A stretch of DNA of 34,189 nt from an uncultured Candidatus Saccharibacteria bacterium (GCA_964527375.1 CAZGPL010000001.1:1-34189); one strand, 5' to 3'. Shown: positions 51 to 12,370, counted from the first letter of the stretch. Translations and numbers: made by a program. Notes: a model not told the origin generated them from the sequence alone.

Positions 51-98
51 GGGCTGAACCTAGGGTCCGACCTAGGGCTGAGCCTAGGGCTTAGCCCT
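51..98. repeat. Four tandem 12-nt units of a GC-rich dyad repeat (GGGCTGAACCta / GGGTCCGACCta / GGGCTGAGCCta / GGGCTTAGCCCta)
   Basis: Units start at 51, 63, 75 and 87, an exact 12-nt period. Each core is a 4-1-4 or 5-1-5 palindrome. The array abuts the TAG stop (97-99) of the radical SAM gene and fills most of the gap to the next ATG at 39. Confidence 0.85.
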
Positions 99-1635
99 AC
101 TTCCTCCCCTGACTTTTATCAAAATCCTTCATATGACCAAAAAACTTTTTAGCAGACATAAAATAATACTTAACATCACTCCATTTTCTGATACTAAAAA
201 TTTTTCTTAACAAATACTGGGGTGAAAAAAAGGAAGAGTACAAAGCTTGGGTTAATTCCAACAATCTTTCTTCCGAAAAAGGAATTCTCATAACGGGATT
301 CCTCATATCAAATTTCTCATAATCTTTTGGGCCGACTTTAAACCAATCATTTTTCACACATTCGTCGTAAAGTTTAGCTCCGGGATAAGGAATAACAATT
401 GTAGCCTGCATAGTATCGACATATCCTTTTTTAAATAAATCCTTGGCCTTGTTAATTGTATTCAAAGCCATTTCTTCAGTCTCCCAAGGATAACCCAGCA
501 TTACAGTAATATGAGGTTCCAACCCAGCTTCTTTCGCGGTTTTCAAATAAGGCTCAATCTCCTCAACTTTCAAACCCTTATCTAACTTATCCAATGTTTC
601 CTGATTTGCAGACTCCAAACCATACAAAATAAACCTAAAATTAGCCTTTTTCATCAACTCGCAATCCTCTTTTTTCAAAGCATTAATTCTCATGTTGCAG
701 CTGAAAACAACTTTTTTATTGTAACCAGATTCAATCATCAATTCACAAAACTTTTTTAATCTTGGACCAATATAAAAAGTACCGGCATCATCAAAAATCT
801 CCTTAACACCGTAATTATCAACGACATGTTTAACTTCAGCAAAAAGCCTTTCAGGTGAAAAAACCCTGTAAGAACCTGTTGGATACAATGTAAAATTCCA
901 AACACAAAAGGTACATCTCCCCCACCAACAATCTCTCCCTGAATACATATACGTCCCCGGTCTGTACTTGTAATTCCCATTTTCACAAGCGTAAAGCTTC
1001 CATTTAGTTAAATCTCTATCAATAAAAGGCAAAACATCAAGATTATGTTTTATCTCCATCGGACCTGAACACCAATATTTTTTAACATGTGTAGCATTTT
1101 CACTAAGATTAACTAACATATTCTTTTCCTTTCCCCAAACTCCTCCGGGCATAACTTTTCCCGTAGTTATTGAATCTAATAGGTCGACTAAAACAAAATC
1201 ATAATCACCACCTGTAATCACATAATCAACAGGACATTTTTCCATGGTCTCAATAGGAAATGTGGTAACGTGATCACCAACTATTACCACAATAAGATCG
1301 GGAAACTTGGTCTTAATTTTTTTGACAGTCTCCCAATAAATTTTAATAACCGGAGTTTTAGCTTCTATCATTAACAAATCAGGTTTTTCTTTTCTAAGCT
1401 GAGTAAACCATTCAGATAAAGTCTTTTTTTCAGCAATACCGTCCATCCAAAAAACTTCGTAACCCCTTGATTGAGCTAAAGATGCGGCATACGCAGGAAC
1501 CATCGGGTATATGAATGTAGGAGCATTAAAATACTGAAATTGTCTATTTTGAGAAAGAAGTGGCACTCCTTTATCACTTTTTATAGGTGGGTACCCTATC
1601 GCAACTTTAAATTTTTTTGCTTTTATTTTAGTCAT
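97..1635 (-). CDS. B12-binding-domain radical SAM enzyme (class B-like)
   Basis: 512 aa. The N-terminal part looks like a Rossmann-type B12-binding domain (DLLMIEAKTPVIK...IVVIVGDHVT...VITGGDYD). It is followed by a Cys triad, SGRDCWWGRCTFCVW, and a TIM-barrel-like core (FILYGLESANQETL). ATG at 1635 lies 2 nt after the upstream stop. Confidence 0.8.
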   Translation of the reverse strand: MTKIKAKKFKVAIGYPPIKSDKGVPLLSQNRQFQYFNAPTFIYPMVPAYAASLAQSRGYEVFWMDGIAEKKTLSEWFTQLRKEKPDLLMIEAKTPVIKIYWETVKKIKTKFPDLIVVIVGDHVTTFPIETMEKCPVDYVITGGDYDFVLVDLLDSITTGKVMPGGVWGKEKNMLVNLSENATHVKKYWCSGPMEIKHNLDVLPFIDRDLTKWKLYACENGNYKYRPGTYMYSGRDCWWGRCTFCVWNFTLYPTGSYRVFSPERLFAEVKHVVDNYGVKEIFDDAGTFYIGPRLKKFCELMIESGYNKKVVFSCNMRINALKKEDCELMKKANFRFILYGLESANQETLDKLDKGLKVEEIEPYLKTAKEAGLEPHITVMLGYPWETEEMALNTINKAKDLFKKGYVDTMQATIVIPYPGAKLYDECVKNDWFKVGPKDYEKFDMRNPVMRIPFSEERLLELTQALYSSFFSPQYLLRKIFSIRKWSDVKYYFMSAKKFFGHMKDFDKSQGRK

Positions 1636-1637
1636 TT

Positions 1638-2654
1638 TTAACCTTCAACGTAATTACCCGTCTTTTTATCATATTTTTTTAGCTTTAATTCGGGTTTTTT
1701 CATTATACCAATAAGAAAATTAATTCCGTAATAAATGTGAGTTAAAAAAACTCCTTTCATAAAATCAAAATGGGCTTGCTCCTGATTTTCCTCATTTTTA
1801 GTTATTTTAAAAGAAGAAAAAAATAAAATCCCAAAATAAATTAACAAAAACAAAACGTAATAAAGAGAGAAATAAGGCCAAAAAACACTTAAAATAAATC
1901 CCCCCAGTAAACCAATTGTAAAAAGAGAAGGAGCAAAATACATAGGAATTCTTGAAGTTTGAGGGAAAATTCTTGCAAACTGACCCCTGTGCTGACCGTA
2001 TCTTGAAATCTGCTTTAAATATGGTTTAAAAACTTCTCTTCGGTGATGATAAACCAAAACATCTGGATCGTAAGGAAACTTTCCTCCATGTTTTTCAACA
2101 AGATCAAGACACAACTTGGTATCCTCACCAGGCCAAAACTCAACAGGGAATCCACCAACCTCTTCAAAAGCACTTTTCCTGACAAATAAATTAACAGAAG
2201 GATAATCATCCATTAATCTTTTTTCTTCCGGTTTGTATCTGTATGTAGTTTTCCCACTAACGATAAAAGATTCAAAAAGATACCCTGACATTCTTTCCAA
2301 ATATTCAGCACCCAAAGGTGTTACCGCAGGTCCACCCAGAGCATAAACTTCAGGATCCTCAAATACTTTAGCGGCATTTTTTAACCAACTATATTCAGGA
2401 TAAGAATCATCATCCAAAAAAGCTAAAATATCTCCGGTTGCATGTTCAGCACCCAAATTACGCTTTTTCCCGGGACCCACATTACCTGATTCCAATATTT
2501 TTATTCTTGTTCCACCAAAATCGTATTCTTCTTTTTCATCTGTAATAATAAAAACTTCAAATTCCTGATAATCTAATTTCTTTATCCTTGTAATACTCTC
2601 TTTAACATAATCATTTATTTTTCTAACCGGAATGATTATTGAAAATTTAAGCAT
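1638..2654 (-). CDS. GT2 glycosyltransferase with C-terminal transmembrane anchor
   Basis: 338 aa. FSIIIPVRK strand, AFLDDDSYP (DxD) and GEDTKLC motifs. The C-terminal ~100 aa are hydrophobic (2-3 TM helices). SD-like GGAGA lies about 9 nt upstream of ATG 2654. 8-nt overlap with the upstream gene. Confidence 0.8.
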   Translation of the reverse strand: MLKFSIIIPVRKINDYVKESITRIKKLDYQEFEVFIITDEKEEYDFGGTRIKILESGNVGPGKKRNLGAEHATGDILAFLDDDSYPEYSWLKNAAKVFEDPEVYALGGPAVTPLGAEYLERMSGYLFESFIVSGKTTYRYKPEEKRLMDDYPSVNLFVRKSAFEEVGGFPVEFWPGEDTKLCLDLVEKHGGKFPYDPDVLVYHHRREVFKPYLKQISRYGQHRGQFARIFPQTSRIPMYFAPSLFTIGLLGGFILSVFWPYFSLYYVLFLLIYFGILFFSSFKITKNEENQEQAHFDFMKGVFLTHIYYGINFLIGIMKKPELKLKKYDKKTGNYVEG

Positions 2655-3474
2655 TGATAGTTTCTCCTGTATTTATTTTCATATCTAAATCTTTATCGTA
2701 TATCCATTTTCTTTTTTTACTATCATCGTAAAATTTTAAAATTCTTAAACGATAGAAAACCGCCAAAGTATCTCTTACCATATTTCTTATATTTTTATCG
2801 AATACCATAAAAGGGGTAAAGTTGGTGTTTGATTGATCCCAATTAACGTATATCGGAGATTCATATATTTTTTTAAAGCCCAAATATCTTGAAACGGAAA
2901 GTATTTCTATATCAAAAGCAAATGCTTTTACCATTAATCTGGGAAGCACCGCTTCCAAAACTTCTCTTTTAAAAACCTTCAGGCCTGATTGAGTATCCTT
3001 AACACGAACACCTAATAATGTTTTTACAAAAATATAGTACCCCCAGCTATAAATTTTTCTAATCTTAGGATAGTTTATTTTAGATGCGGGGTGTCTTTTA
3101 CTGCCAACCATTATATCGGCGTCATACCACTCAAGATGCTCCAAGATTAGAGAAATACCGTTAGGATCAATGTCCATACCGGAGTCTATAAAGGCAATGT
3201 AATCCCCTCTAGCCCTAGCCATACCATACCTTATTGCAAAACCTTTACCTTTGTTGTTCTTGTAACCTAAAACCCTTACACTTCCTCGCTTAATAGAACT
3301 AGCATTCTCAAATGTTTTATCTAGAAAATATCCGTCAACAACAACAAGTATCTCGTAACTGAAACGTGTTTCCGACATAACATCATCAATATTTCTAATA
3401 TCTTTAAGAATGGTCTTCTCTTGTTTATAGGCAGGAATTATTACTGATACCATTTTCTTTGGTTTTCTCTTCAC
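2647..3474 (-). CDS. GT2 glycosyltransferase, polyprenol-phosphate-sugar-synthase-like
   Basis: VSVIIPAYKQE, VVVDG, AFIDSGMDIDP, and VKDTQSGLKVFKRE (the DTQxGxK motif of DPM1/Alg5-like enzymes). The longest ORF starts at GTG 3474. ATG 3453 (MVSVIIPAYK) is an equally plausible true start. Confidence 0.8.
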   Translation of the reverse strand: MKRKPKKMVSVIIPAYKQEKTILKDIRNIDDVMSETRFSYEILVVVDGYFLDKTFENASSIKRGSVRVLGYKNNKGKGFAIRYGMARARGDYIAFIDSGMDIDPNGISLILEHLEWYDADIMVGSKRHPASKINYPKIRKIYSWGYYIFVKTLLGVRVKDTQSGLKVFKREVLEAVLPRLMVKAFAFDIEILSVSRYLGFKKIYESPIYVNWDQSNTNFTPFMVFDKNIRNMVRDTLAVFYRLRILKFYDDSKKRKWIYDKDLDMKINTGETINA

Positions 3475-3502
3475 ACCCTTATTTTACTACATTTTTTGAT
3501 GA

Positions 3503-3549
3503 GGGCTGAGCCCTGTGCAGGGCTCAGCCTAGCTCCGGGCTCAGCCCGG
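3503..3549. repeat. GC-rich palindromic element: 26-nt perfect palindrome plus a 15-nt palindrome
   Basis: 3504-3529, GGCTGAGCCCTG-TG-CAGGGCTCAGCC, is self-complementary except for the central dinucleotide. 3535-3549, CCGGGCT-C-AGCCCGG, is a 7-1-7 palindrome. It is built from three GGGCTSAGCC(C) units. Confidence 0.9.
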
Positions 3550-3603
3550 GAAAACCCCGAAGGCATAGGAAAAAACTAAGCTTAAAATGGGAAAATTATA
3601 GGA

Positions 3604-3631
3604 GGGCTCAGCCCTGTGCAGGGCTGAGCCC
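3604..3631. repeat. GC-rich 28-nt perfect palindrome, second copy; possible 3' hairpin of the upstream flippase gene
   Basis: GGGCTCAGCCCTG-TG-CAGGGCTGAGCCC. It starts 8 nt beyond the flippase stop (3639-3641). On the minus strand it is followed by the moderately U-rich TCCTATAATTTTCCCATTTT. It is the same as the 3504-3529 copy except for a G:C to C:G swap in both arms. Confidence 0.9.
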
Positions 3632-3638
3632 GGAAAAC

Positions 3639-4961
3639 TTAGTCCGGCAAAACTTCCAACAACTCGTTAACTTCAGAAAAACTACTAAAATCCTTTTCTC
3701 CTATTCTACTAGGAACATTAAAATAAAAATAAACAGAAAGTGAAATTAAAATAAAAACACTGACTGCAATATTAACATTTATCACATCCCACAAAGTCTC
3801 ATGAAAAATATTCAAAAGTATGTATTGAATTAAAACCCCGGGCAACAGTAATAATCCCACTTTCTTTTTGTCTATAGCCAAGAAAAACATGACTAGAAAA
3901 TTTATCAAAACATAAAACGCTACAAAAACTGAAAACAAAGGTAAATACTTCACGGAATTTTCAAATGCTTTTCCGAAAAATAAATTCGTAATAATTCCAG
4001 GGAAAATCTGATAGCAAAGTACCCCTACAACTAGAATTAAGATCAAAAGCATGAGAAGCCTTTTCAAACTTTTCATAAAACTCTTACCTCCGGCGTAAAG
4101 TGCGGTAATTTTAGGAAACATTACAACGGAAACAGCTCCGGAACCAAACAATAGTATCTTTCCAAGAGTCATGGTTCCTGCATAGTATCCCGCATCAGTT
4201 GAGTCAAAATATTTCTTCACCATTATGAGATCAACATTATTCAAAGCCATCAGAGAAAAATTTACTAAAACAACGGTAGCCCCAAAGGAAAATATTTTTT
4301 TGAAACTATCTGTCACATCTACTTTTTTAAGATTTTTTAAGTTTAAGCCCAAGATTAAAAATCCCGAAGAGAAAACCAAAAAAGAAACAATTGGAGCGGC
4401 GCTATAAACTCCTCTTAAACCAAATCCCATAAAAACAAAAATCGTAGGTATTAAAAACCTAACAAAAAGGCTGAAAATATGAAATACGGAGTATTTTTTA
4501 AACTTCTGAGTTCCCTGAAGATAGGAATTAGGAATAACTATCAAAAAACCCATCCCGACAGATATTCCAAACAAAGTTATTAAAAAACTATCCTGAATAT
4601 TAATATAACCTGAGATAAATTCCCGTAAAGAGAAAATGATAAAAAATAAAACAGACCCTACTAAAAGTGAGAGCTTAAAAGATTTAAAAAATAAAACCAT
4701 CAGTTTATTATCATCTTTTTTTGAATATATTTCGGCATTAATTTTTATCAATGCTGTTCCAAAGACTCCTGCAAAAACCCCTACCATTGAGGATAAAGAT
4801 AGAAGCGCGTTGAAAGTTCCGTAATCTTCAACTGACAACTTTCTTCCCAAAACAAACTGTAATAAATAACTAAAAACGGAACCAACTATGGTTGCGGTTC
4901 CAACCAAAGCAGTCTCCATGATATCTTTTCTCGCTCTCAAGCTTTTCAACTTATTTAGCAT
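3639..4961 (-). CDS. MOP-superfamily (Wzx-like) polysaccharide/oligosaccharide flippase
   Basis: Polytopic, roughly 12-14 hydrophobic segments. The N-terminus, MLNKLKSLRARKD...LLQFVLGRKLSVEDYGTFNAL, is typical of polysaccharide-biosynthesis (Polysacc_synt) proteins. Start is placed at ATG 4961 because GGAGG (4968-4972) sits 6 nt upstream. The longest ORF extends to 4991. Confidence 0.7.
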   Translation of the reverse strand: MLNKLKSLRARKDIMETALVGTATIVGSVFSYLLQFVLGRKLSVEDYGTFNALLSLSSMVGVFAGVFGTALIKINAEIYSKKDDNKLMVLFFKSFKLSLLVGSVLFFIIFSLREFISGYINIQDSFLITLFGISVGMGFLIVIPNSYLQGTQKFKKYSVFHIFSLFVRFLIPTIFVFMGFGLRGVYSAAPIVSFLVFSSGFLILGLNLKNLKKVDVTDSFKKIFSFGATVVLVNFSLMALNNVDLIMVKKYFDSTDAGYYAGTMTLGKILLFGSGAVSVVMFPKITALYAGGKSFMKSLKRLLMLLILILVVGVLCYQIFPGIITNLFFGKAFENSVKYLPLFSVFVAFYVLINFLVMFFLAIDKKKVGLLLLPGVLIQYILLNIFHETLWDVINVNIAVSVFILISLSVYFYFNVPSRIGEKDFSSFSEVNELLEVLPD

Positions 4962-6681
4962 AGACACCCTCCATTTCATTTTTATAAACATTGTATAAAG
5001 TAATACCTCTTAAACTAATTGAATCAAAATAACTTAACTCCATACCGCTTTCACTATTTGAAGTATCGTCCCAAACCGGATAGACGAAGTATTTTGTTCT
5101 GTCAGCAAAAGGTTTGAGTTCTTTAATGACTGCCCAAGCTCCAAATTCCCTAAAAAATGGCCATATCTGCGTATAATATTTCTCTTTAAAACCTACTGTC
5201 ATGGTGGTTTTCAAATCTTTACCAAACTTTTTATAAACTAACTCTTCAAAAGATACCCCACTTGAAAAAGCTGAACCCTGTTCTTCGGAAAGTTTTTTAA
5301 AATAATTAACTATTTCCTCCATTCCGATCAACCACTTGGGCTCTAAAACCTTAACACCCGTCTTCAAACCACCAAACATTGGATTAAAATATGAAAGATA
5401 ATCAGGATGTACATAAATATTGGTATAAAAAGCTGGAATCAGGAACAAAAGTACGGCTATAAATTTATTCCATGCCTTTTTAAGATTAATTCTATCTAAA
5501 ATCCAAATGAAAAATAGAGATGAAATTAATGAAATTACACTAAAAGCCGGCAAAATATATCTATCAAGTTTTTTTGTGGGTAAAGTTAACTGAATAAAAT
5601 AGAAAAAGATGAAAATGAAAAGAAAATCGAAAAAACTTCTCTCGTTGTCTGACATTTTTCTTCTTGTAATTAAAGCTCCGATGAACCCAATCAAAAGGTA
5701 TATGGATGATCTTAGACCCAAAACAACAAAATAAAAGCTAGGACCCGGATCTTCTATCAACTCACCAAAATAAAATTGAATATGGTCGCCCTCTACCCCT
5801 ATATCGGCTATGCCTGCGTACAATGTTTGAATTACTTTAAAGGGAATTACCCACATTGCCGGCCAAAATACAAAAAAGACTGAAATTGAAACCAATAACC
5901 ATGGGAAAAAGACTACACTAAAATCTTTTACCAATCTAAAAAAATGGCTGAAGTTAATTACAGGCCTCTCCTTAAGTAAAAGTTTATATTTCCCGTTACG
6001 GAAAAGGTACATAAACGAGGAAAGTCCGTAAAAAGGTACTAAAAATAAAGCTGAGGTTTTGGTTAGTAAGGCAAAACCTGCAAAAACACCCGAAATAATA
6101 AGCCTTTTTTTATTCTTAATATCAAGAAAATAGTAGTGCATCCAAACAACACTGGCTAGCATGAACGTGGATACCATTCCTTCGAGATGAAACATCCTAG
6201 TCAATCCTAAATAAAAAGGCTCTAAAGAAAGCAGAAGAACAGCTAAAACGGCATATCTTAAATTTAAAGCTTTTTTTAAAGCATAAAATAGAAAGGAAGT
6301 GGTTAAAGATATTGTCAGAACAACTAGAAACTTTTGAACAAAATCTAAATGAAATATCACACCAACGTCATCCCCGGCTGTTAACGAAATCCCTTTATGA
6401 GAAGCCCATAAATTGGTTATTTTCGCCCCCGCGCTTCCTGCCCACATCAGAGTCACTCCCGGATGATATTTTTGCAGAGTCGCCTCGAAATTTCCACTAA
6501 AGACACCACTTCCAAAATCATAAGATCTAGCTTTCCACCTCCAAACATCAGTATTAAAATTATCATGACCTAAGGATGGAATCCTTATCAAAACAGAAAA
6601 CACAAAAACTAATATTTCCAGGCTGAGCCCGGGGCTGAGCCCTAAAATTCCTTTTTTTTCTATTCCTGCATTCTTTTTCAT
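4951..6681 (-). CDS. GT-C-fold membrane glycosyltransferase (ArnT/PMT-like), paralog of 8370-10016
   Basis: 576 aa. About 11-13 TM segments followed by a soluble ~130-aa C-terminal domain. Acidic first-loop motif GHDNFNTDVWRW after TM1. Shares YHPGVTLMW, EPFYLG..R..HLE, LLTKTS and KKLDRYILP motifs with the 8370-10016 product. Codons 11-22 (GILGLSPGLSLE) are encoded by a copy of the GC-rich repeat. Confidence 0.7.
   Translation of the reverse strand: MKKNAGIEKKGILGLSPGLSLEILVFVFSVLIRIPSLGHDNFNTDVWRWKARSYDFGSGVFSGNFEATLQKYHPGVTLMWAGSAGAKITNLWASHKGISLTAGDDVGVIFHLDFVQKFLVVLTISLTTSFLFYALKKALNLRYAVLAVLLLSLEPFYLGLTRMFHLEGMVSTFMLASVVWMHYYFLDIKNKKRLIISGVFAGFALLTKTSALFLVPFYGLSSFMYLFRNGKYKLLLKERPVINFSHFFRLVKDFSVVFFPWLLVSISVFFVFWPAMWVIPFKVIQTLYAGIADIGVEGDHIQFYFGELIEDPGPSFYFVVLGLRSSIYLLIGFIGALITRRKMSDNERSFFDFLFIFIFFYFIQLTLPTKKLDRYILPAFSVISLISSLFFIWILDRINLKKAWNKFIAVLLFLIPAFYTNIYVHPDYLSYFNPMFGGLKTGVKVLEPKWLIGMEEIVNYFKKLSEEQGSAFSSGVSFEELVYKKFGKDLKTTMTVGFKEKYYTQIWPFFREFGAWAVIKELKPFADRTKYFVYPVWDDTSNSESGMELSYFDSISLRGITLYNVYKNEMEGVYAK
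4968..4972 (-). promoter_or_regulatory. Shine-Dalgarno GGAGG for the flippase start at 4961
   Basis: The minus strand reads GGAGGgtgtctATG. The site lies inside the last codons of the upstream GT-C gene, which suggests translational coupling. Confidence 0.6.
6616..6640. repeat. GC-rich repeat copy A (TTCCAGGCTGAGCCCGGGGCTGAGC), intragenic
   Basis: Matches 6693-6717 at 23 of 25 positions. It lies 39 nt downstream (minus sense) of the ATG at 6681, in frame within the GT-C gene. Confidence 0.85.
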
Positions 6682-6692
6682 AATATTTTTAC

Positions 6693-6717
6693 TTCCGGGC
6701 TGAGCCCGGGGCTGAAC
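6693..6717. repeat. GC-rich repeat copy B (TTCCGGGCTGAGCCCGGGGCTGAAC), intergenic
   Basis: Lies in the 40-nt gap between the stop of 6722-8383 and the ATG at 6681. Direct repeat of copy A, offset by 77 nt. Confidence 0.85.
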
Positions 6718-6721
6718 TCAA

Positions 6722-8383
6722 CTATCTTCCGCAACCACAACCCCCCGAAGATTTTTCAGGCGCAGTGTATTTATAAACCTCAATATCATCACCAAGTCTT
6801 AGTTTACTATCGAATTTTACTAATTTCTCAATAAGAGCACTATTTTCTTCTAAAAACGCCCTCTCGTCAAAATTAGGATCGTTAACCACTATCAAAGATT
6901 CAGAAAAATCATCAAATTTTTCTAGACCTTTATTAGATCTAATTCCCATGTGAACAAAAATATCTTTCAAAGCGTTATCATTGTAGATTAATGTTTCCCC
7001 ATAATTGTAATTACTTACCAACCATTGATACAATACATTTTTTGTGTCTCCTCTGTAATACATATAGGAATTTATGAAAGATTTAAAAAATAAAGGAGAT
7101 AAAAATATTCCTAAATACAGATACATTAATAAATTTAGAAACTTTTTGGTTTTTAGATTAACGACGTTATCTTGCAGATATCCCCCAAGAACTTTTAAAA
7201 ACGAGACAACATTAAAACCAAAAATTATTGCCAAATAAGGATAAATAACAAAATAATAATGCGACCTTGTATTCTCAAACCCTGACATATACCATAATAA
7301 AAACAAAGAAACTACATACAGAAAAGTCAAAAATACGTCCTTCTCCTCTATTTTATTTTTAACTATTTTGTAAATAAGATAAAGCAACCCAATAAAAAAT
7401 ACCGGGATTACAACATATCCGGTATCTGCAAGCAATCTCCCGAAACTTTCGGTAAAAAACTTTGCAACATGTTCTGAAAAATTTACGGAACCAACGTTCT
7501 CAAATTGCCAAAAAGCACCCTTACCATACTCCCTACTAGAAAAAGTTTTAAAATCTAACAGAGCGTACGGGGTCCCTACTAAAAATCCCAAAAAGGCAGA
7601 TAAACCTGATAAAAAAAGGGATAATATTCCCTCACGATTCAATAAATTCACCTCTCCCCGAGCTTTTTTTTTATTTCTCAGTTTTTTCTTTTGCCAAAAT
7701 ATTTTTAAAAAATGAGCTGTAGGAACCATCAAAGCAGACAAACCTCCGTTGTATTTAATTGAAGCCGCAAAACCAATAAAAAGTCCGGAAAGAACGTAGT
7801 TTTTCAAATCGTCTTCTTTCAATATCCGAGCCGCAAAATATAATGCCCACGAAAGAAGAAAAGCGGTAGGGATGTCACCAAGAGCATAGTGGGAATGCCA
7901 CATATGGTAGGGCATTATCGCAATAGCAAGAGCCGCCAAAATCCCGGCTTTCCTGCCAAAAAGATTCTTTCCTGCAAGATACACAGGTATTGCAGTTAAA
8001 GCCCCTAGAATGGCAGAAAAACACCTAGTAAGGTAATAGTAGATTAAGTTATCATTCCAAATTAGCGGCATTAATATTTCAAATTTATCTTTTAAACCCG
8101 CTGTTTCAACAAGAGTCCTAAGTCTCGCGAAAATCATATACAAAAAGTAATTAAGGTAGATATAAAGGTGGGGCCAATCAAAATGTCCGGGGTTTGGATC
8201 AAATCTGATTCCAAGGGCAGATCTTATTATAGTAGGCTCATCAGGATGAAAAATGAAAGGAAACCCATGTTTTATTCCAACTAACCTAAGAACCAGACCA
8301 AGAAAAACTATGGAAACCAAACCAACGATGACTGGGAAATCTTCTCGCCACTTTTTATTTTTAGACTTTTTACTCTTTAACAT
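6722..8383 (-). CDS. GT-C-fold membrane glycosyltransferase (PMT_2/ArnT-like, GT39/83-type)
   Basis: 553 aa. Basic N-terminus, TM1, then GFPFIFHPDEPTIIRSA (acidic first-loop motif) and HFDWPHLYIYLNYF. Many TM segments, then a soluble ~100-aa C-terminal domain. Unusual GC-rich tail encoding SSGGCGCGR. ATG at 8383 overlaps the upstream stop by 14 nt. Confidence 0.75.
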   Translation of the reverse strand: MLKSKKSKNKKWREDFPVIVGLVSIVFLGLVLRLVGIKHGFPFIFHPDEPTIIRSALGIRFDPNPGHFDWPHLYIYLNYFLYMIFARLRTLVETAGLKDKFEILMPLIWNDNLIYYYLTRCFSAILGALTAIPVYLAGKNLFGRKAGILAALAIAIMPYHMWHSHYALGDIPTAFLLSWALYFAARILKEDDLKNYVLSGLFIGFAASIKYNGGLSALMVPTAHFLKIFWQKKKLRNKKKARGEVNLLNREGILSLFLSGLSAFLGFLVGTPYALLDFKTFSSREYGKGAFWQFENVGSVNFSEHVAKFFTESFGRLLADTGYVVIPVFFIGLLYLIYKIVKNKIEEKDVFLTFLYVVSLFLLWYMSGFENTRSHYYFVIYPYLAIIFGFNVVSFLKVLGGYLQDNVVNLKTKKFLNLLMYLYLGIFLSPLFFKSFINSYMYYRGDTKNVLYQWLVSNYNYGETLIYNDNALKDIFVHMGIRSNKGLEKFDDFSESLIVVNDPNFDERAFLEENSALIEKLVKFDSKLRLGDDIEVYKYTAPEKSSGGCGCGR

Positions 8384-10016
8384 CTTTTGTTTCTTTCAAA
8401 TCAACTTTGGTATAAATTCTCCAATACTCCAAACCATTTATCCATACAGAGTAATCTTTTTCAAATTTATAATCATTATTTTTTAAAACCTTTTCCGGCA
8501 TCTCTTCGTTCATAGTAAGAACTAAAAGATCATAGCTACTCGGACCATATACTCTAACGTCAAATATTTTGGAATTTGGATATATTGCTCTTATAGGTTG
8601 GGTGTCATAAAAACCCAATTTAGGCTCATCTTCGCCACTATCTCTGTACTTTTCTAAAATGACATTTTTAAGCTCTATCACACCCACTCCGAATGATTTC
8701 TGACCAATAATTCCGTTAGCCGTAACAGTACTTCCGAATACCGGGCTTGTGTAGGTAAAATACCATGGAAAAATCTTAAAAATTGGTAAAATTACAAAAA
8801 GCAAAAAGGTTAAAACCAAAATAAATGAGTACAATCTTTTATTTTTTATATAATCCCAAGCCATTTTAAATCCCGAATGCGATAAATAGGCAAAAAGAGG
8901 ATACATAAATATTATGTACCTATCAATTTTCTTAGAGGCTACAGTCATAAATAAGATGTAACCTAAATAAAAAACAACTAAATATAGGCCCAATCCCTGA
9001 AAGCTCTGTTTTATATTTTTTAGTATTTTTATAAAACATACTCTTGATTTTATTTTGAAAAAAATGAACGAAATTATTCCGATGATTGTGAAGGGGGACA
9101 TTTTTAATAGCGTGACCAAAGGATAAAACAGCAAACCTCCGTCCATCTTTTTTTCTCCTAGAAAAACCTGCCTGTGTCCCTCTCTCATACCAACACGCTC
9201 ACCCTCACCAAATATCATCTCAAACAAGTAATACATGGGGTCTTTCCACAGAGCAGGGAAAAATAGGAATGTGAAAAATATAAACGAGACTAAGATAAAA
9301 ATTGACATACGCAGAATTTCTTTTTTGTTATTCTTTTCCTCAATTAAGTGAAAGAAATAGTAAAAAATTACGTAAAAAAGCGCGCCTATACATATACTTT
9401 TGGTAAGAAAAGATAAAGCAAGAAGCAATCCTGTAATTATTGATTTAGAAAACTTCCTATCTCTTAAATTATCAAATGCAAAAATCAATCCTAAAAAAAC
9501 CAATAACGTTGAAAGAACATCCAAATGTAAGATTCTTGAATTTCCAAGAAAAAACGGTTCAAATGAAATAAGTGAAACCACTAGAAAACTTTTATAAAAA
9601 CCGGTAAGTTTGGAAAGGAAATATATCACTAAAATTGAAAGGGCTAGTTGTACAAAAACAAGTGTGCCTTTTGCTACCAAGTCAAAGGTCTGATACGTAT
9701 CGGAATTATAGACAGTGATACCTGAAAGCTGTTTAAAAATTTCAACGGAAGAACCTACAATCCACATTAGAGTTACTCCCGGGTGATAATGTTGATAAGT
9801 CTTTTCAAATTGACCGTATTTTATACCTACAACGAATTGTTCCGATCTACTGTGCCACAAAACTGCGTCAGGGTTTATTACATCATCGGCTAAACGGGGG
9901 AGTCTGGTGGCAATAAATAAAAGGGGGAAAATCACCACCAAAAGAACAGGAAAATATTTCTTTTCCTTTATCTTTCTTAATTTAGATATCAATTTATGAA
10001 TCTTTTCCGAAAGCAT
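8370..10016 (-). CDS. GT-C-fold membrane glycosyltransferase (ArnT/PMT-like), paralog of 4951-6681
   Basis: First-loop RLADDVINPDAVLWHSRS, YHPGVTLMW, EPFFLG..R..HLD, FLTKS, KKIDRYIIF. Polytopic with a soluble C-terminal domain. The longest ORF begins at TTG 10031. ATG 10016 (MLSEKIHKL), preceded by GGGGGT, is preferred. Confidence 0.7.
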   Translation of the reverse strand: MLSEKIHKLISKLRKIKEKKYFPVLLVVIFPLLFIATRLPRLADDVINPDAVLWHSRSEQFVVGIKYGQFEKTYQHYHPGVTLMWIVGSSVEIFKQLSGITVYNSDTYQTFDLVAKGTLVFVQLALSILVIYFLSKLTGFYKSFLVVSLISFEPFFLGNSRILHLDVLSTLLVFLGLIFAFDNLRDRKFSKSIITGLLLALSFLTKSICIGALFYVIFYYFFHLIEEKNNKKEILRMSIFILVSFIFFTFLFFPALWKDPMYYLFEMIFGEGERVGMREGHRQVFLGEKKMDGGLLFYPLVTLLKMSPFTIIGIISFIFFKIKSRVCFIKILKNIKQSFQGLGLYLVVFYLGYILFMTVASKKIDRYIIFMYPLFAYLSHSGFKMAWDYIKNKRLYSFILVLTFLLFVILPIFKIFPWYFTYTSPVFGSTVTANGIIGQKSFGVGVIELKNVILEKYRDSGEDEPKLGFYDTQPIRAIYPNSKIFDVRVYGPSSYDLLVLTMNEEMPEKVLKNNDYKFEKDYSVWINGLEYWRIYTKVDLKETKDVKE

Positions 10017-10899
10017 AAAAAACACCCCCAATCAAACTTATCGCCATCCTTATCATATGATAAATTATTGAAACAGATATTGCGGTTGTTTCCGAAACAC
10101 CTACAAATGAAAACATACTGGCATACAAAGCATCCTGCACTCCTAAACCATTTATAGACGGGATAAAAAATCCTGCTAGAGTAATCACAGGAAAGGCCAT
10201 CAAACAATAAAAAATCGGAAGCTTTATACCAACTGACATAAAAACCAAATATTGAGTGGTGATAGATAAGAACTGTATCAAAAGAGAAGTTACCATAGCA
10301 AATATCAAAACTTTCGGATGATCTTTATAGACGAGCAACGCGTCATATATTTTCTTTAAAAATTTTATTCTTCCACTTAACAATTCCAAAACTTTCATTC
10401 CAATAAAAAATCCTGAGATTACCCATATTAATAAAATAAAAACACCTAAACCTAAATTCTTGCTTAAACTAAATAAACCTATGAAAAAAAGCATTAAAAT
10501 ACCGGAAAATCTCTCAGTAAAAACAGATGAAAAACCTGTTGCCTGATCATCTATCTTTTTTCCCAATCTGTACATTTTATAAACATCACCGCCTATGCTT
10601 GTAGGCATAAAATTATTGAAGAAAGCACCTATAAAATAGAGCTTAAAAAGATAAAATCTAGATACTTTGTGAGAATTTTCATGGATAAGGAGTGATTTCC
10701 ATCTAAAAGAACTGATAATGTAGTGAACAATGATTGTCAAAAAGATAAGAGGAATAAATCTCCAATCCAATATTTTGAAATTATTAACTAGTTCTTCTTT
10801 ATCTACTTTTTTAGCAAATAGGTAGATTATTAAACCTAAACTGACTGCTATTTTTAAGAGTGTTTTTAACAATTCTTTTGTTTTTGATTTTTCTTTCAT
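9994..10899 (-). CDS. UPF0104 / lysyl-PG-synthase-TM-region-like 'flippase-like' membrane protein
   Basis: 301 aa, about 8 TM segments. The N-terminus, LLKIAVSLGLIIYLFAKKVDKEELVNNFKILDWRFIPL...SSFRWKSLL, has the characteristic layout of this family, which is commonly found next to GT2 genes. Confidence 0.65.
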   Translation of the reverse strand: MKEKSKTKELLKTLLKIAVSLGLIIYLFAKKVDKEELVNNFKILDWRFIPLIFLTIIVHYIISSFRWKSLLIHENSHKVSRFYLFKLYFIGAFFNNFMPTSIGGDVYKMYRLGKKIDDQATGFSSVFTERFSGILMLFFIGLFSLSKNLGLGVFILLIWVISGFFIGMKVLELLSGRIKFLKKIYDALLVYKDHPKVLIFAMVTSLLIQFLSITTQYLVFMSVGIKLPIFYCLMAFPVITLAGFFIPSINGLGVQDALYASMFSFVGVSETTAISVSIIYHMIRMAISLIGGVFYAFGKDS

Positions 10900-10900
10900 C

Positions 10901-12370
10901 TTAAGATTTCTTTTTTGTTAAAAGTTTAAATTTGCTAAAGACAGACATGATATCATTTTTTGAGAAGAATCCGGCTATGTTAAGAGACCACCACAAAAGC
11001 CCGGCAAAAGGTAGAAATCCCAAAATTTGAACCCAAATATTATCAACATTAGAGAGCCATGCTATAGAAATTCCTTGTACCAAGATAACAACATGGTCGA
11101 TATTCAAAAAAGTAAAATCCATTCTCTTTTTAATCCAGTAATACATGAAATAAAGACAAAGACCGCTACCAAAGACCATAGACCAAGAAACAGCCGGGAG
11201 TAATTCCAAAAAATTGTTTAATACAAAAAAGGATGCGACAGTGCCAATAATTAGAAACAAGTAGCTTCCGACCATACTTTTAGCAAGTTTAGCCGGAATC
11301 ATAACACTCGAGCTTATGATGTTTATAAATGAGTAAATTACAAAGGCAAAAACTATTGGGGCTATTAAGGGAATTGAGCTATCGTATTTATCACCGCCAA
11401 CCAAAATTCTTATCAACAACGGAGCAAGATATGCGGAAAAAGTCCCGATAAAAATAATCAAAGAAAATAATTTATCAAAATTTTTGGTAAATGAGCTTTT
11501 AAATTCTTTAAAATCATTCACGTACTTTTCAGAAAAGACAGGAATATTCACGGTAGTAACGGAGTCGGAAACACTCATAAGTTTTTTTGCGTATAAAATT
11601 GCAAAAGCATAGACAGCCACCACCTCAGCCGAGTTAAAAATTCCAAGAGCGTTGGCCCCCAGCTTCTCCCAATTAGTGTAGAGAATCTTAACTATGTAGA
11701 TTGCAATGCTGATCGAAAAAATTTCCTTGAACAAACGTACAAAGTCTTTTTTACTAGGAAAAGATAATTTTCCTCTCAAGGGTTTGAAAGCTATAACAGC
11801 CAGGGATACTGATGATATGATGTTAAATATCAAAAAGGCATAAAAATATCCTGCGACCTTAAAAAAATACACAAAAGGAATAAATATCAAAATGTTCACA
11901 ACCGAAATGACTACTTGGTAAATAAAAAGGTGCTTAAATCTTTTAGTCCCGGAAATTACTGAATTTAATATTCCCTGAACACCCTGAAACAAAAGGGTTA
12001 TCGCATAAATTTTTAAAGGTAAAATCAAACCCTCGTTGTTGTAAAACCCAACTGCAATTCTTTCAGCCATGAAAAAGAGTCCGATAGAAATAGGTAAAGT
12101 GACACAATACCTAACTACAGTTGAAGTAAAAAAAATCTTAAAAATATCTTCTTCTTTTTTTGCTGAAGATATTTCACGAGTGCTGGCTGAAACAAGACCT
12201 AAATGTTGATATATTCCTAAAGCACCACCGATTGATATGGCAAGCTGAACCAAACCCCATTCTCCGACACTTAATATTCTTATTACAACAAATGTTTCAA
12301 CGATACCAAGCAACATAGCCGCTAACTGAGAAAACATGCTTATTATTTGCCATTTTCCAAGATCTTTCAT
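10901..12370 (-). CDS. MOP-superfamily (Wzx/MurJ-like) flippase
   Basis: 489 aa, about 14 TM segments. ILSVGEWGLVQLAISIGG...ASTREIS is typical of oligosaccharide flippase / polysaccharide biosynthesis proteins. AGGAAG SD lies 9 nt upstream of ATG 12370. Confidence 0.7.
   Translation of the reverse strand: MKDLGKWQIISMFSQLAAMLLGIVETFVVIRILSVGEWGLVQLAISIGGALGIYQHLGLVSASTREISSAKKEEDIFKIFFTSTVVRYCVTLPISIGLFFMAERIAVGFYNNEGLILPLKIYAITLLFQGVQGILNSVISGTKRFKHLFIYQVVISVVNILIFIPFVYFFKVAGYFYAFLIFNIISSVSLAVIAFKPLRGKLSFPSKKDFVRLFKEIFSISIAIYIVKILYTNWEKLGANALGIFNSAEVVAVYAFAILYAKKLMSVSDSVTTVNIPVFSEKYVNDFKEFKSSFTKNFDKLFSLIIFIGTFSAYLAPLLIRILVGGDKYDSSIPLIAPIVFAFVIYSFINIISSSVMIPAKLAKSMVGSYLFLIIGTVASFFVLNNFLELLPAVSWSMVFGSGLCLYFMYYWIKKRMDFTFLNIDHVVILVQGISIAWLSNVDNIWVQILGFLPFAGLLWWSLNIAGFFSKNDIMSVFSKFKLLTKKKS

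Follow-up and report, generated by a model that had tools for sequence, protein, structure and literature searches.

What are the short GC-rich palindromes that cluster among the glycosylation genes of an AT-rich bacterial genome fragment, and what put them there? The fragment, hereafter the window, is a stretch of 34,189 nucleotides (CAZGPL010000001.1:1-34189, assembly GCA_964527375.1, deposited as an uncultured Candidatus Saccharibacteria bacterium) with a GC content of 34% and with all its long open reading frames (ORFs) on the minus strand. An initial annotation had likened the palindromes to repetitive extragenic palindromic (REP) sequences and bacterial interspersed mosaic elements (BIMEs), possibly relics of mobilisation by an IS200-type enzyme or by a REP-associated tyrosine transposase (RAYT). 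Our analysis supports this proposal: the same units flank RAYT-like genes, one in the assembly of a relative and one in a sample that contains the window. We consider it highly probable that the repeats are REP elements of a Patescibacterium of the WWE3 lineage, tied to a RAYT-type transposase.

A family of palindromic units in five clusters

The repeat unit is a GC-rich palindrome of 11-15 nt with the core GGGCTNAGCCC, often lengthened to (TT)CCGGGCTNAGCCCGG(AA). Searching the window for GGGCTNAGCC with at most one mismatch gave 21 strand-hits, compared with 2.32 +/- 1.74 expected, and none of 100 shuffles reached 21. The family that the initial annotation had described is therefore real. The exact core GGCTNAGCC is found ten times, always between positions 76 and 6706, and the other 27 kb of the window contain no copy of it, in agreement with the earlier inspection by eye. 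Outside the clusters there are just two one-mismatch matches to GGGCTNAGCC, at 5806 and 28589, which is the level of chance. Once degenerate and variant units are counted, the family comprises 13 units in five clusters between 51 and 6719 (Table 1).

As a single strand, each unit can fold into a stem of 4-6 bp with a 3-nt loop. The units come in two arrangements: doublets whose members have opposite central bases and pair into a hairpin of 12-13 bp, and 12-nt tandem arrays, (GGGCT-N-AGCCC-N)n, with two dyad axes per 12 nt and a period that preserves the reading frame. Inverted repeats with perfect arms were found at 3504-3529 (12 nt) and 3604-3631 (13 nt). Folded as RNA, the doublets reach -29 to -38 kcal/mol (z -5.3 and -3.5), the tandem arrays being less distinctive. 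The similar minus-strand tail noted earlier at several clusters, YTCAGCCYGGAART, proved to be a portion of a longer palindrome, TTCCGGGCTNAGCCCGGAA, that is found in many related copies. Strings resembling CTTCGGGG are present at both places where they had been reported, but at 6741-6750 the string belongs to the coding part of the upstream PMT_2 gene, probably by coincidence. We also looked for the GTAG/CGTC foot tag: (C/G)TAG precedes units in array 1, in its orthologue in the relative L100 and in some RAYT flanks, and most doublets are flanked by CCG/CGG instead, which lengthens the palindrome. Because the units are near-perfect palindromes, no orientation can be assigned to them. Searching the window against Rfam at gathering thresholds, and for tRNA genes, gave no matches.

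The same units flank RAYT-like transposase genes

All loci analysed here (L numbers) are genome fragments, and repeat counts apply to those fragments rather than to whole genomes. In six of them (L260, L299, L300, L303/L213, L306 and L307) the units flank a gene for a Y1/HUH transposase, so that the search for a RAYT gene proposed in the initial annotation was successful in related genomes. The unit-bracketed ORFs L260:2241-2837 and L213:3257-3832 match Y1_Tnp (PF01797, E ~1e-11), their best NCBIfam match is 'REP-associated tyrosine transposase' (44-48 bits), and homologues are named RayT in the JGI annotation.

Two of the genes connect the transposase with the lineage of the window. One, encoding protein P0125 and flanked by GGGCTNAGCCC units, lies on JAHYJU010000028.1 (L299); this contig and that of the syntenic relative L100 (JAHYJU010000012.1) both belong to GCA_019428825.1. 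The other, encoding P0123, lies on a 1,089-bp contig (L306) from run SRR10812146, a run that also yields a contig (L099) 100% identical to window positions 4419-11035. The flanks of the P0123 gene carry the repeat subtypes of the window, namely the loop CTGCACAG and the spacer CGGAGCTAGGCT, which among 311 loci occur otherwise only in L273, and the 5' flank of this gene matches window 3501-3529 exactly over 29 nt. No RAYT gene was detected by tblastn in the 34-kb window or in 79 syntenic loci.

The RAYT genes occupy conserved neighbourhoods, either Lcl_C-RAYT-x-UvrD-KsgA-GT2-FemAB or Lcl_C-RAYT-LepA-MurJ, and the type of repeat co-varies with the RAYT lineage, L300 having GGACTNAGTCC and L307 having GGGCTNAGCCC and GGGCCNGGCCC. 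A homologue from Saccharibacteria (P0172, L311) shares 43% identity with the RAYT of L260 and has doublets built in the same way, CAAGGTCTAACCTTG-TTG-CAAGGTTAGACCTTG, on both sides. This case suggests that compact REP-RAYT pairs are widespread in Patescibacteria. The L311 doublets (9956-9997 and 10661-10697) have 15-nt stems and triloops, and no further copies occur within 20 kb of them. A separate observation concerns the neighbours of the gene: directly upstream of the RAYT in L307 (2177-5800) is a diversity-generating retroelement with an RVT_1 reverse transcriptase, bAvd and two Lcl_C-type targets, and beside the RAYT in L300 (40-3772) a bAvd gene and two Lcl_C genes are annotated, with no RVT_1 match.

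The transposases are about 190-250 aa long and have a C-terminal extension. The motifs HxH, Y-I-H-x-N(P), RVGHLFQ and YPYSS show no variation across 50 homologues, and hhalign against E. coli RayT gave a motif-by-motif correspondence (E 4e-4). An AlphaFold model of the transposase from run SRR10812146 (pLDDT 91, pTM 0.88) had as its top Foldseek match in the PDB the E. coli RAYT bound to a REP hairpin (4ER8_A; TM 0.63/0.71, rmsd 3.0 A); aligned on structure, the protein is 14% identical to E. coli RayT. The TnpA structures of IS608 and ISDra2 matched less well (TM 0.43-0.47). Searching PDB sequences with the RAYT by phmmer returned nothing relevant.

Copies beyond the gene cluster, including coding copies

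A metagenome scan for the doublet listed at least 120 matches. Among the matches listed, the same units are present on at least ~24 AT-rich contigs (GC 0.33-0.44), mostly as CCGGGCTGAGCCCG-nnn-CGGGCTCAGCCCGG, and lie beside unrelated genes: PBP1, class I and II aminoacyl-tRNA synthetases (aaRS), rpsB/tsf, AMMECR1, DD-carboxypeptidase and UvrD. A crude census covered 28 non-redundant loci with 148 units in 270 kb: 61% of the units fell into the 7.4% of the sequence outside ORFs of 100 aa or more, and another 24% were no more than 90 nt from an ORF end.

The initial annotation had regarded the repeats as confined to gene boundaries. This holds for four of the five window clusters, which are intergenic and lie after stops or before starts, but not for the cluster at 6620-6642, which is inside the GT39 ORF, nor for genuine in-frame coding copies in a LeuRS-like gene (L253), in UvrD (L307) and in the L102 flippase. 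The in-frame inserts measure 24-60 nt, multiples of a 12- or 16-nt unit. In the class I aaRS (LeuRS-like) a REP doublet/triplet stands in frame at about residue 465 (L253:4271-4296), and another in the N-terminal domain of UvrD at about residue 80 (L307:7662-7702). Units are also part of the C-terminal tails of the flippase (L188, L102), of AMMECR1 (L199) and of the RAYT itself. Whole arrays are translated as C-terminal tails (GLSPGRAEP..., SGLSPRRAQPRTGSARDGLSPE...) in P0137 (L307:6560-6756), L188:4160-4262 and L199:2700-2823, and gene callers extend N-termini too far, through upstream arrays, in P0002 and P0011.

A loose dimer pattern matched viral contigs 97 times but proved too unspecific to keep, since nearly all of these matches were coding repeats of the Ala-Glu-Pro type in GC-rich phages. 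One IMG/VR contig of GC 0.25 (L090:9700-9760) contains GGGCTCAGCCCAGGGCTCAGCCCAG with a 12-nt period in a local GC-rich island. Upstream of the PBP1 gene in L271 (2100-2238), a composite of ~53 nt (GGCTCAGCC-cggaaaaaaacgctggggttttacactgttacttcga.accggg) is tandemly repeated, which resembles the duplication of a REP and its linker as one unit.

The repeats are subclade-specific additions at a conserved locus

GT39 homologues placed the organism in candidate division WWE3 (Patescibacteria). A scan with one genome per species yielded 79 loci encoding GT39 relatives, of which 11 were mapped in detail; all 11 keep the gene order of the window. Across the 79 syntenic WWE3 loci the motif is confined to the six closest relatives, except for three isolated single copies. 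Within this subclade the repeats stand at the same junctions as in the window, with variation in copy number, spacing and unit type. The PMT|GT39 junction has 1-3 units in every repeat-bearing member. Units are present at the junction between the radical-SAM gene and the next gene in the window and in L100, and there are none in L108. At the flippase|GT2 junction we counted five units in the window, seven units of the variant palindrome GGACTNAGTCC in L100 and two units in L102; L103 and L108 have none there. More distant WWE3 relatives have tight or overlapping junctions and no hairpin, which speaks against an ancestral hairpin and identifies the elements as subclade-specific additions.

Array 1 and its L100 orthologue agree unit for unit: all four stand in the same order, the variant third one among them, and 49/52 nt are identical (94%), whereas identity between the two genomes at four-fold degenerate sites of the adjoining genes is no more than 35-46%. 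On this sequence comparison the conservation of array 1 hints at some constraint.

Dyad symmetry is kept in variant units by changes on both sides (GGACTNAGTCC, AGACTNAGTCT, GGGTCNGACCC and GGGCCNGGCCC), which argues for a structural (hairpin) constraint rather than for one sequence-specific protein that binds duplex DNA. G.U wobble asymmetry, used to separate RNA-level from DNA-level constraint, amounted to 9 sense versus 4 antisense cases, counts that are few and noisy. At the site of array 4, L100 carries the variant AGACTGAGTCT-CGGACTGAGTCC, and GT39 orthologues of 62-69% identity read LGPRLSPRLS, SRLSPGLSP, LSPGLS or LPGLSP; some orthologues have a decayed IPGLLP and P0004 has nothing. 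Because the peptides are intact, decayed or lost, the constraint is on DNA and not on peptide. In the L102 flippase (12255-12290, compared with L188:3498-3533), 24-30 nt of AT-rich coding sequence (...LNLSLKKVEKS...) are replaced by two REP units (...LGLSPGLSPGT...) with length unchanged, a pattern that resembles overwriting or gene conversion more than simple insertion.

Gene context of the window clusters

In the direction of transcription, three GT39/PMT_2 paralogues (10031-4951) are followed by a Polysacc_synt flippase (4991-3639), two GT2 genes (3474-1638) and a B12/radical-SAM gene (1635-97). Since the minus strand carries all genes of the window, transcription of the glycosylation gene cluster probably includes the elements. 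An exact look-up of the radical-SAM protein found no record. The PMT_2 paralogue upstream of GT39 ends in a Gly/Cys motif, GGCGC(G)x* (window 6722-6745), which is conserved in L101, L103, L104 and L105, a set of both near and more distant relatives.

Table 1. Repeat clusters and associated features of the window.
Feature	Position	Strand	Description
REP array 1	51..97	-	four units, 51-61, 63-73, 75-85 and 87-97; TRF period 12, 3.8 copies
REP cluster 2	3503..3547	-	three units, 3503-3513, 3520-3530 and 3537-3547; 17-nt spacing
AT-rich linker, 56 nt	3548..3603	-	between two hairpin clusters; contains TATAAT and CCTTCGGGG mini-hairpin
REP doublet 3	3604..3631	-	units 3604-3614 and 3621-3631; perfect 13-bp hairpin GGGCTCAGCCCTG/CAGGGCTGAGCCC
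REP array 4	6620..6642	-	units 6620-6630 and 6632-6642; 12-nt period; in frame in GT39/PMT_2
REP array 5	6697..6719	-	units 6697-6707 and 6709-6719; second degenerate, GGGCTGAACTC
Promoter-like motif TGTAGTAAAAT (context, not repeat)	3481..3491	-	upstream of GT2, probable ATG 3453-3451

Array 1 lies between the stop codon of the radical-SAM/B12 gene (TAG 99-97), which its last unit overlaps, and the ATG of the next gene (39-37); its sense strand reads GGGCTAAGCCC TA GGCTCAGCCC TA GGTCGGACCC TA GGTTCAGCCC GGAAA. In cluster 2, the first two units form a perfect 12-bp hairpin (3504-3515 / 3518-3529) with CTGCACAG as sense-strand loop, and the cluster as RNA folds at -37.7 kcal/mol (z -3.5). Doublet 3 begins 8 nt past the flippase stop (3641-3639) and folds at -29.0 kcal/mol (z -5.3); no U-tract follows it, and the terminator scan flagged only a 5-bp sub-stem. 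Together with the linker, cluster 2 and doublet 3 make up a BIME-like composite, or one like a REP doublet forming a hairpin (REPIN). Similar composites (hairpin, linker of 45-70 nt, hairpin) are present upstream of the RAYT in L260, L299 and L303 and at the PMT|GT39 junction of L101/L108. Array 4 provides codons 14-21 of the GT39 ORF (4951-6681), read as GLSPGLS, and thereby part of a Lys-rich N-terminal cytoplasmic tail right before the first transmembrane helix (EILVF...). Array 5 fills the 40-nt spacer from the stop of the PMT_2 gene (6722-8383) to the GT39 ATG (6681).

Cluster 2 is directly upstream of the promoter-like motif of the GT2 gene. The window, L100, L103, L108, L138 and L105 all have TGTAGTAnAAT or a close variant 20-40 nt before the start of GT2, so that near and distant relatives share the motif whether they carry repeats or not. 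The motif probably represents the -10 region of a promoter within the gene cluster, which may therefore not be a single operon.

Discussion

We looked for the testable defining features of a REP/REPIN-RAYT system and found a short hairpin palindrome, a mainly extragenic distribution, a RAYT gene flanked by the repeat and a RAYT-type protein. By analogy with the E. coli RAYT/REP pair and with IS200/IS605 elements, a RAYT-type HUH/tyrosine (Y1) transposase encoded elsewhere in the genome would copy and maintain the units. The enzyme would recognise the hairpin in single-stranded DNA, and cutting and rejoining would take place next to it, as the characterised systems lead one to expect (Messing et al. 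2012, PMC3479197; Bertels & Rainey 2011, PMC3116915). Copying preferentially beside existing units could then build BIME-like arrays and REPIN-like doublets. Such an enzyme would stack new copies beside old ones and leave them mainly in the short spacers at gene ends; since the 12-nt period keeps the frame, copies would be tolerated in loosely constrained parts of proteins, and recognition of the hairpin would preserve palindromy through compensatory changes.

Several observations weigh against REP elements tied to a RAYT. The NCBIfam RayT scores of 44-48 bits are below the curated cutoff of 80, and a PDB profile search with the RAYT gave a weak ISDra2 match at the HUH motif, so sequence support is weak and the RAYT assignment rests on motifs and predicted fold. 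The genome of the window and the RAYT gene are linked by the same sample and identical repeat subtypes, not by a shared contig, and all copies in the window are within 6.7 kb of one gene cluster. The units, at 11-15 nt and near-perfect, are shorter and more regular than classical REPs, which are imperfect palindromes of 20-40 nt; the 12-nt tandem arrays are atypical of REPs; and the GTAG or CGTC tag of classical REPs is not evident, (C/G)TAG being present in some arrays only. The conservation of array 1 at near-saturated synonymous divergence is unexpected for a purely selfish neutral element. Finally, transposition by this RAYT is itself proposed from what characterised systems do.

The strong hairpins may plausibly have a secondary role for the host, acting on mRNA ends, on read-through or on the initiation of translation. 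A bolder version, which we find possible if doubtful, is a compact and as yet undescribed branch of REP-RAYT in the candidate phyla radiation (CPR) with mini-hairpins of 11-16 nt that the host has adopted at some junctions, so that the repeats would be a domesticated cis-regulatory and protein-building resource of streamlined genomes and not merely selfish. Behind it stand the conservation of array 1, the arrays that abut starts with a GGAA Shine-Dalgarno-like tail, and the 12-nt modules in the N-terminal tail of GT39, in the C-terminal tails of the flippase and AMMECR1 and in linkers of UvrD and the LeuRS-like aaRS.

It is unlikely that the hairpins are primarily cis-regulatory RNAs of the host (internal terminators, attenuators, 3'-end stabilisers or structures occluding the ribosome-binding site) and only incidentally associated with a RAYT. 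Their high stability, with a doublet at -29 kcal/mol (z -5.3), would suit such a role, as would the position of most copies right after stops and 6-10 nt before starts, the GGAA tail at Shine-Dalgarno distance from several ATGs, and the conservation of array 1 beside poorly conserved four-fold sites. Intrinsic terminators were nevertheless rejected: one weak site was flagged in the clusters, a U-tract is missing, terminator-like sites are below shuffle expectation, and copies lie upstream of divergent genes, including divergent intergenic regions upstream of the PBP1 gene, and inside ORFs. One sequence recurring across unrelated loci and species is not expected of independent regulatory hairpins, and the hairpin-free tight junctions of more distant relatives mean that no ancestral hairpin is required. 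What speaks for regulation fits equally a secondary, exapted role of REPs. We regard it as very unlikely that a DNA-binding regulator with dyad symmetry uses the units as operators to control the glycosylation gene cluster. The units are indeed perfect dyads of 11-15 bp, concentrated in one ~7-kb glycosylation segment in the window and its syntenic relatives, and some lie directly upstream of -10-like boxes; but the same units stand beside unrelated housekeeping genes elsewhere and flank a transposase gene, their spacing to -10 boxes ranges from 3 to 19 nt, and one genome can contain several different palindromes, a mixture that does not fit recognition by a sequence-specific dimer.

It is highly improbable that the family consists of translated peptide repeats, or of minisatellites prone to slippage that serve as contingency loci for enzymes of surface glycosylation. 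The 12-nt period preserves the frame, GLSP/AEPR-type peptides occur in tails of the GT39 enzyme, flippase, AMMECR1 and RAYT (one window array and several relatives), and copy number varies between relatives. Most copies are non-coding, though, a 12-nt step is unable to switch the reading frame, and the GC-rich codons in a 34% GC genome, together with DNA identical to that of non-coding copies, place the constraint on the nucleic acid. The initial annotation had raised a restriction-related origin as a remote alternative, given that the core contains GCTNAGC/CTNAG and that GCTNAGC is a known type II recognition pattern (BlpI-type). We find it scarcely credible that a restriction-modification or methylation system, or HIP1-like biased repair, has over-represented the palindrome: the units form tight arrays and doublets and not dispersed singles, variants such as GGGTCNGACCC that lack GCTNAGC occupy the same arrays, and no restriction-modification gene lies beside the repeats in the loci examined. 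The arrays and the compensated variants lacking GCTNAGC do not fit a single fixed dispersed site of this kind. An assembly or chimera artefact at GC-rich patches, a concern also voiced at the outset, has next to no chance of being the explanation. Short contigs do break at the repeats (L306 begins 19 nt ahead of a REP doublet, and L210 stops at another), but window 4411-11035 is present at 99.9% identity in one Logan assembly and 4419-11035 at 100% in a second, independent one, with clusters 4 and 5 included, and this is incompatible with an artefact there; orthologous arrays are also present in metagenome-assembled genomes (MAGs) from unrelated studies.

To our knowledge, REP-RAYT systems have been studied almost entirely in Proteobacteria. 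The initial annotation knew of no described REP-like family in CPR genomes, and our full-text literature search bears this out: it found no REP or RAYT description in CPR/Patescibacteria and nothing linking RAYT or REPIN with Patescibacteria, and 'repetitive extragenic palindrome' and 'candidate phyla radiation' co-occurred in a single paper, incidentally. The automatic RayT labels of JGI show that annotation pipelines already recognise the enzyme family. A REP-RAYT system in WWE3 would extend the host range to small, AT-rich, gene-dense CPR genomes, and the unusually small REP unit offers material for studying hairpin recognition by RAYTs. The repeats explain why ORF calls run too long and why odd GC-rich 'GLSPG/RAEP' peptides turn up among predicted CPR proteins (for instance P0002, P0011 and P0137), and they call for caution, as MAG assemblies of such organisms break at them. 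With array 1 conserved at near-saturated divergence, the usefulness of REPs to their host becomes testable in a new lineage.

Comparison with known systems

Rho-independent terminators share with the window family GC-rich stem-loops straight after stop codons; they differ in that the family has no U-tract, repeats one sequence at many loci and has copies in divergent spacers and coding DNA. Yeast mitochondrial GC clusters and cyanobacterial HIP1 offer an analogy, being GC-rich palindromes in an AT-rich genome with occasional in-frame copies. HIP1 is a dispersed, non-arrayed 8-mer with no transposase association, and hosts and mechanisms are unrelated.

Rickettsia palindromic elements (RPEs) are 100-150 nt long, and we know of no dedicated transposase for them. 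In-frame palindromes in genes, here UvrD, the LeuRS-like aaRS, the flippase and GT39, are common to RPEs, intragenic REPs and the window family; size, host and the dedicated transposase set the family apart from RPEs, and we do not assign it to them. Other bacteria are known to have intragenic REPs, many of which lie within genes for replication and repair (Di Nocera et al. 2013, PMC3733652).

With IS200/IS605 elements (IS608, ISDra2) the system has in common the HUH/Y1 core, subterminal hairpins on one strand and no need for terminal inverted repeats. Here, in contrast, the repeats that flank the gene are also dispersed without it, and the RAYT-specific YxxNP and (W/Y)P(F/Y)SS motifs are present. 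An autonomous IS200/IS605 element was rejected on account of this dispersal, the conserved neighbourhoods, and a fold nearer to RAYT than to the TnpA of IS608 or ISDra2.

REP/BIME sequences, REPINs and RAYT (TnpA_REP) have been described in Enterobacteria and Pseudomonas (Bertels & Rainey 2011, PMC3116915; Messing et al. 2012, PMC3479197, PDB 4ER8). The window family differs from them in its host, an AT-rich Patescibacterium, in lacking an evident GTAG/CGTC tag, and in the length of its doublets (~28 nt, as against ~100 nt for REPINs). It resembles them in that its repeats are short, GC-rich and hairpin-forming, lie for the most part outside genes at gene ends, and occur in clusters and as paired doublets; in that the same repeats flank a Y1/HUH gene in a conserved neighbourhood and co-vary with the RAYT lineage; and in a protein that has the RAYT motifs and a predicted fold nearest to 4ER8. 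Domesticated single-copy RAYTs sit in conserved neighbourhoods (10.1101/2021.07.10.451892), and the RAYT gene of WWE3 does likewise.

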